The notes under the pieces were generated by a model. That model was not told the DNA's origin. It did not search any database and saw nothing but the letters and a program-made list of their open reading frames with translations. The translations under genes and the position numbers were made by a program. A DNA stretch of 23,613 nucleotides from a virus. Its lineage: Duplodnaviria > Heunggongvirae > Uroviricota > Caudoviricetes. Shown in pieces: positions 4,527 to 17,358 of this stretch. Numbering within the stretch: position 1 is the first letter of the stretch; every line of letters starts with the position of its first letter. The stretch lies in IMG/VR virus record IMGVR_UViG_2617270938_000001, one strand, 5' to 3'.

Positions 4527-5087
4527 TATCGCGTCCTCAACAATGAATTTTGTGATGCGGTGCCTGGTGCCTCCAGGTGACGTTAACCAGTTAACAATTA
4601 ACGCCGGATACAGAGAATCCACCCATAACACTGTTTTTGGTTTTAACTGTTCCGCGTGCGCTCAGCCGCATTCACCACATCACAAAATTCACTTTAAAAA
4701 GGGCGGCAGAGCAGTCACGGAGTAAAACTGATACCGCCAAACGTCACCAGAAAATTGATAACAGAGGGCGTTGCAGCGGGGTTGTCACTTAAGCGTATGG
4801 TCAACCTGACAACCCGGTGTCCTCAACGGGGAAGGAATACCCCCGCCATACTTACCGCCGCGCCATTTCGCGGAGTGCCACAACCGGAAGCGCACGGTCG
4901 ACGAAAATTTAACGACAGGCTATCTATGAACCAACAACTTCGCCGTGTGCTTTCGCGTTATGCCCTGACTTTTCAGGGAAATATCCTTTCAGTAAACTGT
5001 CAGTGCCGGATGCTCACCCGTGTCCGGCGCACGCACTCCACCTCACCCGTGGAGAACTCCTTAATCACCAACCCTCAGGAGGGTGAA

Positions 5088-7764: not shown

Positions 7765-8835
7765 ATGGCTAACGCCTGGCTCAGATTATGGCATGACATG
7801 CCAAATGACCCTAAGTGGCGAACAATTGCCAGGGTGTCAGGACAGCCAATTGCAACAGTGATGGCAGTGTATATCCACCTCCTGGTGAGCGCGTCACGAA
7901 ATGTCACGCGAGGTCACATTGATGTCACGACAGAAGATTTGGCAAGTGCGCTCGACGTGACAGAAGAGGTAATTGATTCAATTTTGCAGACGATGCAGGG
8001 GCGGGTACTTGATGGTGATTTAATCACTGGATGGGAAAAACGCCAGGTGCTTAAAGAGGACAACGGCAATATTTCGCAAACCGCAAAATCTCCTGCAGAG
8101 CGCAAGAGGGCGCAGCGAGAGAGGGAAAGAAAGCGGGAACAAAATGGCGATTGTCACGGCGCGTCACGAAATGTCATGCACATGTCACGACGAGTCACGA
8201 CAGATAAAGATACAGATAAAGATACAGATCAAGAAGATCAAAACACTATGGTCCATGGCGTAAAAAACGCCACGAACCAGGCAGGGGATGTTCAGACCGT
8301 CACTCCTGGCCAGCCCGCAGGCACGACACCGGAAGCCGATTCAGCGTATGCGCTGAAAGCCGATTCGGGCGCTGTGCAGCAGGTGATGACCGCAAGGCAG
8401 GAGCAATCACACCAACTGCAGCAGCCTGAAGCCGATTCCGCCATTCAGCGGGAAGCCGATCGGGTAGTCCCGGAAAACACCGGGCAGTCTGTGGGACGAG
8501 TGGATTATCCGGATGTGTTCGAACAGGTCTGGCGGGAGTACCCGTTGCGTGCTGGGGCAAACCCGAAGAAATCCGCTTTCAGTGCCTGGAAGGCCAGATT
8601 ACGCGAGGGGGTGCCACCAGAGGCCATGCTGGATGGCGTGAGGCGTTACGCAAGATACCTGGCGGCTACCGGGAAAACGGGAACGGAATTTGTTCAGCGA
8701 GCGACGACTTTTTTTGGACCGGACCGGAATTTTGAGAACCCCTGGTTGCTCCCGGTAAGCGGCACGAACAACCAGCGTTGTGTGAATCATATTTCTGAAC
8801 CGGATACCGAAATTCCACCGGGCTTCAGGGGGTAA
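7765..8835 (+). CDS. phage replication initiator / replisome organiser (lambda O-like role) with internal iterons
   Basis: ATG 7765 with AAGAGG SD 5 nt upstream (the track ORF starts at GTG 7759). Position after the cro-like pair; contains two clusters of TGTCACG iterons (see repeat features), analogous to ori inside lambda O. Confidence 0.65.
   Translation: MANAWLRLWHDMPNDPKWRTIARVSGQPIATVMAVYIHLLVSASRNVTRGHIDVTTEDLASALDVTEEVIDSILQTMQGRVLDGDLITGWEKRQVLKEDNGNISQTAKSPAERKRAQRERERKREQNGDCHGASRNVMHMSRRVTTDKDTDKDTDQEDQNTMVHGVKNATNQAGDVQTVTPGQPAGTTPEADSAYALKADSGAVQQVMTARQEQSHQLQQPEADSAIQREADRVVPENTGQSVGRVDYPDVFEQVWREYPLRAGANPKKSAFSAWKARLREGVPPEAMLDGVRRYARYLAATGKTGTEFVQRATTFFGPDRNFENPWLLPVSGTNNQRCVNHISEPDTEIPPGFRG
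7889..7937. repeat. iteron cluster 1 (GTCACG-type repeats at about 10-bp spacing) inside the replication gene
   Basis: GCGCGTCACGAAATGTCACGCGAGGTCACATTGATGTCACGACAGAAG; a near-copy of cluster 2 about 270 bp downstream. Confidence 0.6.
8153..8230. repeat. iteron cluster 2 (five GTCACG/GTCATG repeats, 10-11 bp phasing) plus adjacent tandem ACAGATAAAGAT x2
   Basis: GTCACGGCGCGTCACGAAATGTCATGCACATGTCACGACGAGTCACGACAG followed by ATAAAGATACAGATAAAGATACAGATCAAG (encoding DKDTDKDTDQ). Confidence 0.6.
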
Positions 8836-10731: not shown

Positions 10732-10942
10732 AAACGGTTTGCGGGAAAAGGAGAGTTAAGTAGAATTGCAGCGGGTGCTTGAGGCTATCTGTCTCAGGCA
10801 TGAACACCAAAAGGCAGATAGAGAAAAGCCCCAGTTAACATTACGCGTCCGGCAAGACGCTTAACATTAATCTGAGGCCATATCTATGCTCTACACACGT
10901 AGGTTAGCCTCTTACGTGCCGAAAGGCAAGGAGAAGCAGGCT

Positions 10943-11098
10943 ATGAAGCAGCAAAAGGCGATGCTAATCGCCCTGATCGTCATCTGTTTAACCGTCATTG
11001 TGACGGCACTGGTAACGAGGAAAGACCTCTGCGAGGTACGAATCCGAACCGGCCAGACGGAGGTCGCTGTCTTCACAGCTTACGAACCTGAGGAGTAA
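10943..11098 (+). CDS. hokD: Hok/Gef-family type I toxin (51 aa; matches my recollection of E. coli HokD/RelF)
   Basis: MKQQKAMLIALIVICLTVIVTALVTRKDLCEVRIRTGQTEVAVFTAYEPEE. AGGAGA SD 8 nt upstream. An in-frame upstream extension from ATG 10886 gives a 70-aa mok-like ORF. Confidence 0.9.
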   Translation: MKQQKAMLIALIVICLTVIVTALVTRKDLCEVRIRTGQTEVAVFTAYEPEE

Positions 11099-12603: not shown

Positions 12604-12978
12604 ATGCTCATAGATTTGGTTTTACCTTACCCGCCGACGGTGAACACTTACTGGCGACGCCGTGGCAGCACATATTTTGTATCAAAAGCCGGGGAGCGTT
12701 ATCGCCGGGCAGTGGCGCTTATTGTTCGCCAGCAGCGGCTGAAATTAAGCCTGTCCGGAAGGCTGGCGATAAAGGTGATTGCAGAGCCACCGGATAAGCG
12801 TCGTCGCGACCTGGACAATATCCTGAAAGCACCGCTGGATGCGCTGACGCATGCGGGAGTGTTAATGGACGATGAGCAGTTTGATGAAATCAATATCGTT
12901 CGTGGTCAGCCAGTATCTGGTGGACGTCTGGGGGTGAAGATTTACCCCATAATGCATGAAGAGCAGGTCAAAAAATGA
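12604..12978 (+). CDS. rusA: Holliday junction resolvase RusA
   Basis: 124 aa with PPTVNTYWRRRG and RRRDLDNILKAPLDAL, matching the RusA motifs I recall (PPSNNRYYR... / RRRDLDNLQKA...). AGAGG SD. Confidence 0.85.
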   Translation: MLIDLVLPYPPTVNTYWRRRGSTYFVSKAGERYRRAVALIVRQQRLKLSLSGRLAIKVIAEPPDKRRRDLDNILKAPLDALTHAGVLMDDEQFDEINIVRGQPVSGGRLGVKIYPIMHEEQVKK

Positions 12979-13796
12979 AACTGGAAGATTTACCGAAATA
13001 CTACTCCCCAAAATCCCCCGGCCTGACTGATGCATCGGCCTCAACGTCGAAAGATGCGCTGAGTATCACTGATGTGATGGCCGCGCAGGGCATGACACAG
13101 AATCGGGCTGAGATGGGGTTTTCTGCGTTCCTTGGGAAAATGGGCATCAGTATGAATGACAGGGCGCGGGCAACAGAATTACTGGCAGATTATGCACTCA
13201 GTCGGTGCGATCGTGTGGCGGCGTTGAGAAAACTTCCGGCAGAAATAAAACCGGTAGTGATGCGCATTATGGCTTCGTACGCTTTTGAGGATTATGCCCG
13301 CAGCGCAGCGAGTAAAAAGCAGTGCCCTTGTTGCTATGGGGAAAAATTTATTGAAAGCATAGTTTTTACAAACAAGGTCCAGTATCCGGATGGTAAGCCG
13401 CCGGTATGGGCAAAGTGTACGAAAGGTGTGTATCCGTCTTACTGGGAAGAATGGAAAAAAGTCAGGGAGGTGGTAAAAGTTGCCTGTCCGGAGTGTGGCG
13501 GAAAGGGTGAGGTTTCCACCGCCTGTAAGGATTGCCGTGGGCGTGGTGTCGCCATTCATCGTGAAGAGTCGGTAAAACGTGGTATGCCTGTTATCAGAGA
13601 CTGCCAGCGTTGTGATGGTCGTGGCTGTGAAAGACTACCATCAACGGAGGCATTTAATGCCATACGCAAAGTGACGAGTGCTATCACGCTTGATACGTGG
13701 AAAAAATCAGTGAAACGCTTTTACGATACGTTGGTGGTTCGGTTTGACATTGAAGAGGCATGGGCGGAGCGGCAGTTAAAGAGGGTAACGCGATAG
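12975..13796 (+). CDS. late-gene antitermination protein Q (82/21/933W type)
   Basis: 273 aa with a Cys-rich zinc motif (CPECGGKGEVSTACKDCRGRG ... CQRCDGRG). Overlaps the rusA stop (ATGA); followed immediately by a promoter/terminator pair. Confidence 0.8.
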   Translation: MKLEDLPKYYSPKSPGLTDASASTSKDALSITDVMAAQGMTQNRAEMGFSAFLGKMGISMNDRARATELLADYALSRCDRVAALRKLPAEIKPVVMRIMASYAFEDYARSAASKKQCPCCYGEKFIESIVFTNKVQYPDGKPPVWAKCTKGVYPSYWEEWKKVREVVKVACPECGGKGEVSTACKDCRGRGVAIHREESVKRGMPVIRDCQRCDGRGCERLPSTEAFNAIRKVTSAITLDTWKKSVKRFYDTLVVRFDIEEAWAERQLKRVTR

Positions 13797-13900
13797 TGTT
13801 GTTGATTTTTCCCGAATCTGTGGTAAATTTGCTCTAACGATGGGCGTTTTATGCCTGACGTTAGAGGATTTTTACACCCCGCCGCCTGGCGGGTTTTTTA
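13797..13900 (+). promoter_or_regulatory. pR'-like late promoter with downstream tR'-like intrinsic terminator (CCCCGCC-GCCT-GGCGGG + TTTTTT at 13877-13899)
   Basis: TTGATT ... TGTGGTAAAT promoter-like elements directly after Q, then a GC hairpin with T-run about 50 bp downstream, the layout of the lambdoid short pR' transcript. Confidence 0.55.
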
Positions 13901-14370: not shown

Positions 14371-15420
14371 ATGCTTAATACTGTAAAAATATCCAGTTGT
14401 GAGTTAATCAACGCCGACTGCCTGGAATTTATCCGGTCGTTACCCGAAAATTCTGTTGACCTGATAGTCACGGACCCGCCGTACTTTAAAGTGAAGCCTG
14501 AGGGCTGGGATAACCAGTGGAAGGGCGACGATGATTACCTGAAGTGGCTGGACCAGTGTCTGGCGCAGTTCTGGCGGGGGCTGAAACCTGCCGGAAGTCT
14601 TTACCTGTTCTGTGGTCATCGCCTGGCATCTGATATCGAAATCATGATGCGTGAACGCTTCAGTGTGCTGAACCATATTATCTGGGCGAAGCCGTCCGGA
14701 CGCTGGAACGGATGCAACAAGGAAAGCCTGCGGGCGTATTTCCCCGCCACAGAGCGCATTCTGTTCGCGGAACATTATCAGGGGCCGTATCGTCCGAAAG
14801 ATGCCGGGTATGCGGCGAAGGGCAGTGCACTGAAACAGCATGTGATGGCCCCGCTGATTTCTTACTTTCGTGATGCGCGCGCGGCCCTGGGGATAACGGC
14901 AAAACAGATTGCAGATGCCACAGGAAAGAAAAACATGGTGTCGCACTGGTTCAGTGCCAGTCAGTGGCAGCTACCGAACGAAAGCGATTATCTGAAATTA
15001 CAGTCGCTGTTTGCCCGGGTGGCAGAAGAGAAACATCAGCGGGGAGAACTGGAAAAGTCCCATTACCAACTGGTCAGCACATACAGTGAGCTGAACCGGC
15101 AGTATACGGAACTGCTGAGTGAATATAAAAATTTGCGGAGGTATTTCGGTGTGACGGTGCAGGTGCCGTACACCGATGTGTGGACGTATAAACCGGTGCA
15201 GTACTATCCAGGGAAACATCCGTGCGAAAAACCGGCAGAAATGCTGCAGCAGATAATCAGCGCAAGTAGTCGTCCTGGTGATCTGGTTGCGGATTTTTTC
15301 ATGGGGTCGGGTTCAACGGTAAAAGCGGCGATGGCACTGGGGCGTCGTGCGATTGGTGTTGAGCTGGAGACCGGACGTTTTGAGCAGACAGTCAGGGAAG
15401 TTCAGGATTTAATCGTTTGA
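14371..15420 (+). CDS. orphan DNA methyltransferase, beta-class amino-methyltransferase (N6-adenine or N4-cytosine)
   Basis: 349 aa. Motif IV DPPY near the N-terminus (LIVTDPPYF) and AdoMet motif I near the C-terminus (DFFMGSGST), the permuted order of beta-class MTases. No adjacent restriction endonuclease candidate. Confidence 0.85.
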   Translation: MLNTVKISSCELINADCLEFIRSLPENSVDLIVTDPPYFKVKPEGWDNQWKGDDDYLKWLDQCLAQFWRGLKPAGSLYLFCGHRLASDIEIMMRERFSVLNHIIWAKPSGRWNGCNKESLRAYFPATERILFAEHYQGPYRPKDAGYAAKGSALKQHVMAPLISYFRDARAALGITAKQIADATGKKNMVSHWFSASQWQLPNESDYLKLQSLFARVAEEKHQRGELEKSHYQLVSTYSELNRQYTELLSEYKNLRRYFGVTVQVPYTDVWTYKPVQYYPGKHPCEKPAEMLQQIISASSRPGDLVADFFMGSGSTVKAAMALGRRAIGVELETGRFEQTVREVQDLIV

Positions 15421-15469: not shown

Positions 15470-15540
15470 GGCCCTTTAGCTCAGTGGTGAGAGCGAGCTA
15501 AAGGGCCGGGTCGCTGGTTCAAATCCAGCAAGGGCCACCA
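15470..15540 (+). tRNA. tRNA-Ile-like element with aberrant anticodon arm (probable tRNA pseudogene)
   Basis: Acceptor GGCCCTT/AAGGGCC, D-arm GCTC-AGTGGTGA-GAGC, T-arm GCTGG-TTCAAAT-CCAGC and 3' ACCA are intact. The anticodon-arm region is 12 nt (AGCTAAAGGGCC) instead of 17 and is perfectly complementary to the element's own 5' end. Confidence 0.5.
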
Positions 15541-15549
15541 TATCACATA

Positions 15550-15626
15550 CCACCATTAGCTCATCGGGATAGAGCGCCAGCCTTCGAAGCTGGTTGCGCG
15601 GGGTTCGAGTTCTCGATGGCGGTCCA
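15550..15626 (+). tRNA. tRNA-Arg (anticodon TCG)-like; candidate tRNA with imperfect stems
   Basis: D-arm GCTC-ATCGGGATA-GAGC; anticodon arm CCAGC-CTTCGAA-GCTGG; T-loop TTCGAGT; 3' CCA. One A-C mismatch in the acceptor stem and two G-T pairs in the T-stem. Confidence 0.45.
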
Positions 15627-15640
15627 TTTATCGGTATTCT

Positions 15641-15700
15641 GCGTTGTTAGCTCAGCCGGACAGAGCAATTGCCTTCTAAGCAGCTGTGGTTGCACTCCTG
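15641..15700 (+). pseudogene. tRNA-Arg (anticodon TCT)-like 5' fragment lacking a recognisable T-arm and 3' acceptor
   Basis: GCGTTGT-TA-GCTC-AGCCGGACA-GAGC-A-ATTGC-CTTCTAA-GCAGC resembles tRNA-Arg(UCU) through the anticodon loop, but the downstream sequence has no GGTTCGAATCC-like T-arm. Confidence 0.4.
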
Positions 15701-15882
15701 TTGTTTCTGGTGGTGATGGTGGACTTCAGCAGCCGGATAATGTCGGTGCTGTCTGATGGTGTTTTGGTGGCGGGTGTGTGGTTGTTGCTTTCCCGTTGCT
15801 GAAAAAGAAAGCATCAGGCGATTAGCAGGGTATCAGTTACCCGTTGAAATTTTTAAATACCTCACAATTCCACAGCTTGATG

Positions 15883-16080
15883 ATTGTCTGGCTGCCGGAG
15901 AATTTGTTAAAAATAACATCGCATGGTGAATCCCCCTCAGCGGCGGGGCATCTGGCAAAGTGTATGATCCAGAGAACATGCAAATTCAGTAGACAGGCTG
16001 AATTTACCGGGAGGCCCCTGGCACCATGCGACAGACAGAAATTAGGCTATACTTCAGCCCCTCTCCGGAGGGGCTTTTCT
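15883..16080 (+). ncRNA. candidate noncoding RNA element A (about 198 nt), paralog of element B, ending in intrinsic terminator AGCCCCTC-TCCG-GAGGGGCT + TTTT
   Basis: Shares blocks with 16352-16545 (ATTGTCTGGC, TTTGTTAAAAA, CGCATGGTGAATCCCCCT, GAATTnACCGGGAGGCnCCnGGCACCATGC, identical terminator hairpin). The overlapping ORFs are on different strands in the two copies, arguing against a shared protein. Confidence 0.45.
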
Positions 16081-16268
16081 GTGCAGGATGTGTCACAGTT
16101 TCCTGAATTCTGAGTACTGTCCTGTTACTCAGGGTGCTATATTTTCTGACGTGATGAAAGTCTGCCGGAAGGCGGAACGTATCGGAAATGACCCAGTAGA
16201 GAAAACGTTGACTCAGATACCGATGCTGAGTTACCGGGAAACCGGCATCACATGACCGCTATCCTTCC

Positions 16269-16292
16269 AGGCTCGCTCCGGCGGGCCTTTTT
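16269..16292 (+). terminator. intrinsic terminator between the two repeat elements (GGCTCGC-TCCG-GCGGGCC + TTTTT)
   Basis: GC-rich stem with tetraloop followed by a T-run; about 30 bp upstream lie TAAAAT and CATAAT -10-like hexamers preceding element B. Confidence 0.5.
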
Positions 16293-16351
16293 ACTGCAGA
16301 AAACAGTTTTCCCGTAAAATGCCACGTTGCTCATAATTCAGGCTGGCGATT

Positions 16352-16545
16352 ATTGTCTGGCCGGCGGGAAGTTTGTTAAAAAATTTCGCATGGTGAATCC
16401 CCCTGTGCGGAGGGGTAATCAGCGAGTAGGTATATGGGATAATCGCGGATTCAGGTGCTGGTACTGAATTCACCGGGAGGCACCCGGCACCATGCAATGG
16501 CACATAGCGCCACTCTCCAGCCCCTCTCCGGAGGGGCTGTTTATA
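16352..16545 (+). ncRNA. candidate noncoding RNA element B (about 194 nt), paralog of element A, same terminator hairpin (16519-16538)
   Basis: See element A. The conserved 5' block, the GGTGAATCCCCCT block, the GGGAGGC block and the terminator are retained while the middle has diverged. Confidence 0.45.
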
Positions 16546-16573
16546 TTGATTTTGTCAGATGTGAGTAAACTCC

Positions 16574-16909
16574 TTATGGACTTTGTTGTTTTAGTCCATA
16601 AGGACATATTTGCAGAGTGCAACGGTTATTAAAGCATTCATTCAATACGTTATCTGTATTTGTAGGGCATTCCTGGCTGTTTTTGATTAAATTCCAGAAT
16701 GTTTTATTGAATGGTACTACGTTGTAAATGGTTACAGGTAGCACTTTGTTATTGAGCATGATACCTGTGTGAGTCAGTGTAAATATACTTTCAGGAGGTA
16801 AGAAAGCATCCGATTGATACCAGATTATTAATTTTACTTTACTCCATATGACTGAAAAAGATATTCCGCATGATGGCTGGATAACTGTATCAATCACAAT
16901 CCACTTCAT
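16574..16909 (-). CDS. IraM/YcgW-family protein (anti-adaptor-like), AT-rich moron on the opposite strand
   Basis: 111 aa, [22 protein letters not shown]...IIWYQS...FLPP...ECP...ICPYGLK, matching my recollection of E. coli IraM from memory (not searched). AAGGAAG SD 6 nt upstream. Local GC is much lower than the flanks; a perfect 11-bp inverted repeat (16584-16615) covers the last codons. Confidence 0.6.
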
Positions 16910-17169
16910 TTAGCTTCCTTGTTTATGCCTTGCTGGTGATGTTCTGAAAAGTATAAATGATATTTTTGAATATAAACCATAGAGCAGAATTATTTTTCTG
17001 ATGTTGTTTATTGTTTATTTAAATGCAGGGTGGTTTATATCTCGTCTTGTAGTTTATCCATGCATATCTGCTTGATGATCAGGTTTCTATTTAAGGTATG
17101 GTTTTGTGTTTTTTCTGTGTTACATGTCTGGTATTTTAAAGAATTATTTTTCAGATGGTGGAAAGAACC

Positions 17170-17358
17170 ATGGCATTTAAACACTATGATGTTGTCAGGG
17201 CGGCGGCGCCGTCAGATCTTGCGGAAAAGCTGACACATAAACTGAAAGAGGGCTGGCAGCCGTTTGGTAGTCCGGTGGCCATAACCCCTTATACCCTGAT
17301 GCAGGCGATTGCAGCAGAAGGTGATGTGGTGGTCAGTGGTGCAACTGAGCCGGAGTGA
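17170..17358 (+). CDS. small conserved hypothetical protein (62 aa) upstream of the holin (possibly DUF1737-like)
   Basis: MAFKHYDVVRAAAPSDLAEKLTHKLKEGWQPFGSPVAI...; position just before the lysis cassette. Family name is recalled, not verified. Confidence 0.45.
   Translation: MAFKHYDVVRAAAPSDLAEKLTHKLKEGWQPFGSPVAITPYTLMQAIAAEGDVVVSGATEPE

Follow-up and report, generated by a model that had tools for sequence, protein, structure and literature searches.

The window analysed here, a stretch of 23,613 nt from a Caudoviricetes virus (IMG/VR record IMGVR_UViG_2617270938_000001), contains an antiterminator Q gene, tR′-like terminators, a DNA methyltransferase gene and a group of tRNAs, followed by a DUF3927 ORF and then by the noncoding elements that are the subject of this analysis (Table 1). 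Past the elements lie a minus-strand iraM-like gene, then DUF1737, holin and lysozyme genes, a gene order that confirms the location given in an earlier note on this DNA, after Q/tR′ and the tRNAs and before the holin. The same note had placed the elements in the slot where Stx phages carry stx; they do not stand in place of that gene, as the homolog in 933W starts 46 nt past the stxB2 stop, and therefore stx and the sRNA co-occur. A 1.8-kb segment of the window matches a lambdoid prophage of E. coli MS 85-1 at 99.4 % identity, and as a query this segment is partly matched in 3332 of 5426 complete E. coli genomes, with 1009 carrying at least 80 % of it.

The first and last of the elements, copies A and B, share four ordered blocks on the plus strand, and when the strings reported for these blocks were located by script, each was found exactly twice and in the same order. 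Both copies end in the same hairpin, AGCCCCTCTCCGGAGGGGCT (16056–16075 and 16519–16538), followed by T-rich tails. Their interior has diverged as described, the two being 81 % identical by column in a pairwise alignment, and the mechanical ORFs over them fall on opposite strands (15844–16113, plus; 16291–16503, minus). The -10-like hexamers noted between the elements are present as TAAAAT (16315–16320) and CATAAT (16332–16337), and a block reading CTCAcAATTC or CTCAtAATTC is conserved upstream of copies A and B, respectively. The third terminator between the copies also exists on the plus strand (16269–16288), but it is not free-standing, as it closes a diverged third paralog. A terminator scan places strong plus-strand terminators at 16056, 16269 and 16518, with 15 terminator-like sites in a 4-kb region versus 4.0 expected. 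The hairpins are strong and the U tails that follow them are short or interrupted (TTTTCT for A, TTTTT for the middle unit and TGTTTATATT for B); as RNA (UUUUCU in A, UGUUUAUAUU in B), such tails are poor for a canonical Hfq module, an observation that runs against reading the elements as sRNAs.

Table 1. Coordinates of the array, its parts and the neighbouring features within the window
Feature	Position	Strand	Remarks
Related core copy	4550–4684	-	Flanked by the DicF terminator and the dicB start codon; model R1, 63.1 bits, E 1.6e-14
Antiterminator Q	12975–13796		
tR′-like terminators	13878, 14206		
DNA methyltransferase	14371–15420		
tRNAs	15470–15626		ileZ-like, tRNA-Arg, truncated argO-like
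Block 1	15883–15892, 16352–16361	+	ATTGTCTGGC
Block 2	15903–15913, 16372–16382	+	TTTGTTAAAAA
Block 3	15920–15937, 16387–16404	+	CGCATGGTGAATCCCCCT
Block 4	16000–16029, 16466–16495	+	GAATTnACCGGGAGGCnCCnGGCACCATGC
Unit A, candidate upstream -10	15863–15868	+	CACAAT, would give a longer, ~205-nt form
Unit A, promoter-like element	15884–15913	+	TTGTCT, 18-nt spacer, TG-extended TAAAAA (blocks 1–2)
Unit A, core	15921–16029	+	P1 GCAUGGUG/CACCAUGC, P2 hairpin, variable region, P4 hairpin, P5 CCGGG-AGGCC-CCUGG
Unit A, single-stranded 3′ tail	16030–16055	+	GACAGACAGAAAUUAGGCUAUACUUC; candidate target-pairing region
Unit A, intrinsic terminator	16056–16080	+	8 pairs, 6 GC; tail TTTTCTGTGC
Middle unit, -10-like element	16135–16143	+	Putative, TG-extended, TGCTATATT; ends 7 nt before P1
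Middle unit, diverged third paralog	16151–16293	+	Rfam 30 bits, R1 21.1 bits, fold z-score -2.9; tail 16259–16268, terminator 16269–16288
Unit B, candidate upstream -10	16332–16337	+	CATAAT, would give a longer form, as for unit A
Unit B, promoter-like element	16353–16382	+	TTGTCT, 18 nt, TG-TAAAAA
Unit B, core	16388–16495	+	7-bp candidate pseudoknot AUCAGCG (16416–16422) / UGCUGGU
Unit B, 3′ tail and intrinsic terminator	16496–16545	+	Tail AAUGGCACAUAGCGCCACUCUCC; terminator 16519–16538, weak U tail

Comparison with Rfam identifies both copies as full-length members of the STnc100 family (RF02076). Copy A matches at 15891–16084 with 138.8 bits (E = 6e-31) and copy B at 16360–16548 with 132.5 bits (E = 2.5e-29), each over model positions 1–206 and each at about three times the gathering score of 47 bits; on these E-values the similarity of the two elements is far beyond chance. 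For other Rfam families, a permissive E-value scan returned noise only. The earlier suggestion of a duplicated phage small-RNA family is thus right, and the elements are copies of an already catalogued prophage sRNA family, such that the finding is correct and not new: given an Rfam model, Bakta/Infernal annotation and validated EHEC orthologs, a noncoding RNA recognised by eye is a true positive rather than a discovery. With the STnc100 family, copies A and B share the full-model match and the prophage late-region context. Multiple copies per genome, as seen here, are also a property of the family, which in EDL933 is annotated as a prophage sRNA with 11 copies, is transcribed, and has one copy (STnc100_4) confirmed by Northern blot (PMC5331693).

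Homologs were gathered by two pattern scans of viral contigs, which gave ~160 loci, and an alignment (A3) and covariance model (R1) were built from 39 diverse cores. R1 returns 122 matches, 109 of them distinct, from 100 sources, whilst a scan of genome contigs with the 15-base pattern GCATGGTGAATCCNCC produced chance matches only, in unrelated taxa. Members of the family were found in phages of Escherichia, Shigella, Salmonella, Klebsiella, Citrobacter and Cronobacter; a Klebsiella phage again has the element between Q and holin, and SfIV carries it in the early operon on the PL side, adjoining cI. Within the window, R1 scores unit A (15917–16034) at 86.1 bits and unit B at 102.1 bits.

Between these two units, the permissive scan detects a third STnc100 match at 16120–16295, which at 30 bits (E = 2.8e-4) falls under the family threshold and which ends at the third terminator. 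This middle unit scores 21.1 bits with R1, its fold has a z-score of -2.9, and its helices are retained with altered sequence (P1 GUGAUG/CAUCAC, P2 CUGCC-GGAA-GGCGG and P5 CCGG-GAAA-CCGG). Since the third terminator closes a diverged third unit, the locus is a three-unit tandem array, with P1 starts at 15921, 16151 and 16388. The array belongs to the late-operon leader of a lambdoid prophage and is flanked by Q and the tRNAs on one side and by the lysis genes on the other. Tandem arrays of 2–5 units recur in other phages, with four Rfam-level copies in locus L131, three in L140 and L148, and five in L186, and weak middle copies are likewise found between strong ones in five loci (L139, L157, L175, L181 and L197).

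Each unit consists of a ~110-nt multi-helix 5′ core, a copy-specific tail of ~20–40 nt and an intrinsic terminator. In the core, P1 encloses P2, a short P3, P4 and P5, probably with a pseudoknot in addition, and for unit A the minimum free energy fold reproduces P1, P2, P4 and P5, with the tail unpaired or weakly paired. A check of covariation across homologs, proposed in the earlier note and carried out here with our own model, reveals that the ~110-nt core covaries strongly. Among the 109 distinct homologs, which come from phages of Escherichia, Shigella, Salmonella and Klebsiella, standard pairs occupy 97.5 % of cells, compared to 41–48 % when partners are slid by 1–3 columns, values biased upward, as is conservation, because the alignment is model-fitted and the patterns used to fetch homologs lie in P2 and P5. 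Changes on both sides are seen in 16 of 25 pairs, and the observed values were reached by none of 500 shuffles, a statistic inflated by relatedness among the homologs. Covariation is heavy in the outer P1 pairs and throughout P4. P5 (CCGGG-AGGCA-CCCGG) is near-invariant, loop included, even in the 24 rows that the P5 pattern had not picked out. Its loop has 5 nt (AGGCA) and is not a T-loop; a tRNA-like nature of the elements is not supported, ARAGORN calling only tRNA-Arg (15550–15626) and Rfam tRNA matches being confined to 15470–15623. No similarity of the STnc100 core to any other Rfam family was found.

The 5–11 nt that follow P2 are complementary to the P4 loop, with a mean run of 6.4 bp versus 4.6 bp when permuted (z = 15.6) and with more than 35 pair types, for example CCAGUC/GACUGG, CUGGUG/CACCGG and AAGGUUG/CAACCUU. 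This pattern makes a pseudoknot between the two segments likely. The interaction would comprise 7 bp in copy B and only 3–4 bp in copy A, and it is contained neither in the Rfam STnc100 model nor, as far as the STnc100-related literature goes, in any description found. Taken with the near-invariant P5 and its loop, the pseudoknot amounts to more constraint than a mere scaffold needs, which is a point against a simple sRNA reading.

Beyond the core, a terminator-like hairpin is found within 200 nt in 128 of 141 unique cores (91 %) and within 60 nt in 111, and the median tail separating core and terminator is 23 nt. Tails appear to be exchanged at a conserved core, because near-identical cores carry unrelated tails (L127, L214, L216 and L176). 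Upstream of the core, a promoter-like element scoring at least 9 is present in 51 of 103 regions versus 15 of 103 shuffles, and in 47 of these 51 strong cases the -10 ends 7–11 nt before GGUGA. Blocks 1 and 2 may accordingly be promoter elements, a -35-like TTGTCT and a TG-extended -10, rather than parts of the RNA. Unit starts at 15921 and 16388 are supported by the relatives PasD1 and PasD2, as their 5′ ends, mapped by RNA-seq, are the G of GCAUGGUG in P1. Northern bands of ~222 nt for EcOnc04/05 (Tree 2014, PMC4104026), together with the conserved CACAAT/CATAAT block, fit a second, longer form. We infer from this two candidate 5′ ends, giving transcripts of ~158 nt from P1 or ~205 nt from the upstream -10.

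Relatives of the array units are EcOnc04/05/06/27 in EHEC and PasD1/2 in EPEC. Using probe sequences and the Hfq-CRAC table from the supplement of Tree et al. 2014 (PMC4104026), the Northern probe target of EcOnc05 is found in copy B with 35 of 35 bases (16417–16451), and the EcOnc06 probe agrees with the same copy at 34 of 35. EcOnc05 of E. coli O157 Sakai is an Hfq-crosslinked, Northern-validated sRNA (Tree 2014, PMC4104026), and its Hfq-CRAC peak (Sakai 1179806–1179914) extends from the 3′ half of the core through the tail into the terminator. Copy B is 93 % identical to the EcOnc05 locus of Sakai Sp4 across 215 aligned nt, and qPCR primers for "STnc_100" in STEC vesicles match it exactly. 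Copy A and the 933W element downstream of stx2B (STnc100/EcOnc27) share 79 % identity. The STnc100 copy just 3′ of stx2B overlaps the Hfq-bound EcOnc27/sRNA103 (PMC12711010; PMC12370729; PMC7873438), and a variant of this stx2-linked copy has been associated with clinical outcome (Paganini 2025). More broadly, the moron site 3′ of PR′ carries Hfq-bound sRNAs in eight or more Sakai prophages (Tree et al. 2014, PMC4104026), where they occur as dyads (PMC4104026; PMC7873438). A common ancestry has been proposed for STnc100 and PasD1/PasD2 of EPEC (Zhu, Shabalina and Storz 2026); PasD is Hfq-dependent, being destabilised without Hfq, as well as Northern-validated, and it has RIL-seq partners (PMC8550237). 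No published target, function or phenotype of EcOnc04/05/06 or STnc100 was found in the literature.

It is therefore likely, in our judgement, that three independent STnc100 genes stand in tandem at this locus and act as trans, Hfq-associated sRNAs. Each unit would be transcribed in the lysogen from its own sigma-70-type promoter, and each transcript would end at its own terminator. The resulting RNA would associate with Hfq, the core serving as a shared structured scaffold, and the variable tail would base-pair in trans with host or prophage mRNAs or sRNAs. The present analysis establishes family membership, structure and covariation, terminator capping, the array organisation and the identity of copy B with the EcOnc05 probe. 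Published work on orthologs supplies the discrete transcripts, the crosslinking to Hfq, the dependence of stability on it and the RIL-seq partners; the exact 5′ ends, the tail as a seed and its targets we infer.

A different reading of the same sequence would be a coding one, since each copy retains ATG GTG AAT CCC CCT (MVNPP...), for which a micropeptide or leader-peptide function had been kept in play. A start-like codon is present in 105 of 109 homologs (GTG in 61, ATG in 44), and ribosome footprints are recorded on some EDL933 copies (RCV 0–3.2, PMC5331693), a signal that is not negligible and that would also weigh against a purely noncoding sRNA. The supposed start, however, forms the 5′ strand of P1 and covaries with the bases opposite, its first base pairing with the P1 3′ strand as GC in 53, AU in 44 and GU in 7 homologs. 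The frame ranges from 5 aa in some homologs to more than 38 aa in others, and the only part shared, (M/V)VNPP(V/M)RRG, corresponds to P1, the AAU linker and P2. Nor do the homologs display the third-position, codon-like conservation of a single frame: in CCU-NNG-CGG it is codon positions 1 and 2 that vary and position 3 (G) that is fixed, with some members reading TAG. As no Shine-Dalgarno sequence precedes the start in the window and the overlapping ORFs have no Pfam match, a peptide encoded in each copy is not supported and is highly improbable. Still more remote is the possibility that the repeats mark the termini of a mobile element (IS or MITE) or are relics of one, an origin from insertion-element ends being listed in the earlier note as grounds for rejecting its proposal. 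In favour are direct repeats ~470 nt apart, but no transposase is present, there are no flanking terminal inverted repeats beyond the hairpins and P1 arms, and a curated RNA family accounts for the repeats.

Harder to set aside is the view that the core is itself the functional part, a pseudoknotted, sequence-specific module with a protein, the ribosome, RNA polymerase or a ligand as its binding partner, or else with a part in directing processing. It would work in cis or as a decoy, leaving tail and terminator secondary. The near-invariance of P5, also outside the rows selected by its pattern, and the pseudoknot complementarity are in keeping with this, as are the SfIV early operon and the Klebsiella Q–holin gap, both of which are positions of regulatory leaders. 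A core copy without a terminator also makes up the dicF–dicB leader: here P5 is compensatory (CCUGG/CCAGG), no terminator follows, and 4309 of 5426 E. coli genomes carry the segment, with dicB the sole annotated feature under the match. This leader variant is absent from the Rfam STnc100 model, and a search of STnc100-related literature, as distinct from that on dicB, found no description of it. Its existence is a hint of a cis or structural role, and as such is an observation at odds with the sRNA reading. That the core is itself the functional part is nevertheless unlikely. In 91 % of cases a short variable tail and a terminator follow the core, an arrangement typical of sRNAs; orthologs have been crosslinked to Hfq and recovered in RIL-seq chimeras, and the core is unlike HK022 put RNA or other Rfam families. 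We would entertain somewhat more readily, if still only tentatively, the idea of the ~110-nt core as an autonomous pseudoknotted module with a specific partner (protein, ribosome, RNA polymerase or RNase) that is reused in two settings, namely the 5′ end of many tail-swapped phage sRNA genes (often in arrays of 2–5) and the dicF–dicB untranslated leader (~80 % of complete E. coli genomes); the core would then be more than a scaffold for a pairing tail. By comparison, it is very unlikely that the units work chiefly as a series of intrinsic terminators that shield the lysis genes from read-through in the lysogen and are passed by Q-modified polymerase, with the RNAs as by-products. Three terminators do stand in series between PR′/tRNAs and the holin, in what is a Q-dependent late leader; yet a terminator has no need of a 110-nt covarying core or of its own positioned promoter, tR′ already lies upstream at 13878, and the orthologs are abundant Hfq ligands. 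What is left as novel beyond the original finding is the tertiary constraint on the core and the dicB-leader copy. The array organisation, the candidate pseudoknot and the dicB-leader copy offer handles on the function of the family and on what constrains its core.

With regard to known systems, the EcOnc05 locus of Sakai Sp4 lies after ileZ-argN-argO, the same position as the array in the window. There, one copy is followed by a convergent minus-strand sRNA (EcOnc08/21), whereas the window carries three copies, all in sense orientation, and lacks a convergent partner, the iraM-like gene converging instead; a convergent AsxR/AgvB-type partner 3′ of copy B was looked for and none was found. The tail of unit A resembles that of 933W/EcOnc27 (ACAGAGAUUAGGCAUAUAC), with a common tail motif (ACAGAnAUUAGGC...UAUAC) and common core motifs. 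PasD1/PasD2 of EPEC E2348/69 (= EcOnc13) share with the window a 5′ half (GUUUAUUAAAAAA...CGCAUGGUGAAUCC...GGGAGGC) and the synteny DUF3927–sRNA–lysis genes, but differ in the 3′ half and terminator. Membership of the window units in PasD was rejected on the grounds that only the 5′ half aligns and that the PasD probe matches the window at 16 of 24 bases at most; the PasD loci in turn miss the STnc100 gathering score and reach 30.8 bits with the core model.

The anti-sRNAs AsxR and AgvB are encoded at this same moron site 3′ of PR′, are Hfq ligands, and follow the same idea of a shared conserved part with a short variable seed. Unlike the window units, they are 51–60 nt long, lie on the opposite strand and carry the conserved part at the 3′ end, and neither family (RF02703 / RF02702) has a match on either strand of 15650–17200, at the gathering score or at E ≤ 5. 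HK022 put RNA is, like these units, a structured RNA just downstream of phage regulatory promoters. It is, however, a cis-acting antiterminator, and STnc100 units end at their own terminators, the opposite of antitermination; a put-like antiterminator was likewise rejected, the core model run over all of HK022 giving a best score of 11 bits (E = 0.22) inside a minor tail protein gene. Sibling sRNA sets such as OmrA/B, PrrF1/2 and Qrr1–5 are also paralogs, in tandem or in multiple copies, that combine conserved with divergent segments, and are core-genome regulators with known regulons. Set beside these, the units of the window are distinguished by a conserved part that takes the form of a large structured domain.

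Near-identical STnc100 cores (the conserved 5′ part of this prophage sRNA family, carrying helices P1, P2, P4 and P5) bear unrelated 3′ tails and terminators in viral contigs L127, L214, L216 and L176, which suggests that tails are swapped by recombination at the core. One such tail, present in L176/L168, is of the PasD/EcOnc04 type. In other phage contigs, diverged STnc100 units occur three to five in tandem at a spacing of ~250 nt, often adjoined by tRNA genes. Within contig L157 a weak unit of the middle type is flanked by a B-type unit and one of another type, and thus STnc100 arrays are mosaics.

A core copy also resides in the dicF–dicB leader of the window, after the DicF terminator and before the dicB ATG. 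Its P5 is compensatory (CCUGG/CCAGG) and its P2 is of the GCGGCUGAGCGCACGCGG type, whilst no terminator lies 3′ of it, and Rfam at gathering score does not report it. This segment is carried by 4309 of 5426 complete E. coli genomes. The same prophage also has an Rfam match to sok antitoxin RNA, implying a putative hok/sok-type module.

Features of the window and of other phage contigs (window positions, or contig positions after L-numbers)
Feature	Position	Strand	Basis
Core copy	4550-4684	-	63.1 bits, our core covariance model
DicF	4701-4752	-	Rfam, 76.7 bits
sok antitoxin RNA	10773-10948	+	Rfam, 117 bits
ileZ-like tRNA, anticodon arm replaced	15470-15537	+	Comparison with MS 85-1, 933W
argO-like tRNA, truncated after anticodon loop	15640-15690	+	Comparison with MS 85-1, 933W, Sakai Sp4
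Promoter-like sites (TTAACA, 16 nt, GACAAT)	15883-15910; 16352-16379	-	Promoter scan
Perfect 12-bp hairpin	16571-16604		
iraM-like anti-adaptor gene	16574-16909	-	
Tandem array	L131:2265-3380		
Tandem array	L186:4376-5464; 8376-8520		
Tandem array	L140:342-1038		
Tandem array	L148:1722-2346		
Near-identical core, differing tail	L127:6958-7197		
Near-identical core, differing tail	L214:1466-1705		
Near-identical core, differing tail	L216:6193-6432	-	
Near-identical core, differing tail	L176:5374-5613		
CACCAUGACAACAACAAUACA tail	L130:5055-5294	-	
CACCAUGACAACAACAAUACA tail	L135:6583-6822	-	
CACCAUGACAACAACAAUACA tail	L213:911-1150		

Upstream of the window's array, the ileZ-like tRNA has a replaced anticodon arm, the window sequence being GAGCGAGCTAAAGGGCCGGGTCGC as opposed to GAGCGAGCGACTCATAATCGCCAGGTCGC in the E. 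coli MS 85-1 prophage and phage 933W, and due to this replacement a perfect 16-nt inverted repeat exists with the acceptor 5′ strand (15467-82/15495-510). ARAGORN calls no tRNA here, and the site, which holds most of the window's difference from the 99.4 % identical MS 85-1 prophage, seems to be either a dead tRNA or a locally rearranged stretch. The argO-like truncation, continuing into the DUF3927 ORF region, is common to the window and MS 85-1, whereas argO is intact in 933W and Sakai prophage Sp4.

As the conserved blocks 1–2 upstream of units A and B are promoter-like in reverse complement too, antisense or leftward transcription could also be driven from them. Beyond unit B, the iraM-like gene is convergent with it, and the hairpin (TCCTTATGGACT/AGTCCATAAGGA) overlaps the 3′ end of this gene. 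Unlike Sp4, the window has no convergent sRNA of the AsxR/AgvB/EcOnc08 type. In some family members (L130, L135 and L213) the CACCAUGACAACAACAAUACA tail is similar to CACAACA, the consensus of GcvB R1 targets that AgvB employs as an anti-sRNA, making these possible sponge-type STnc100 members.
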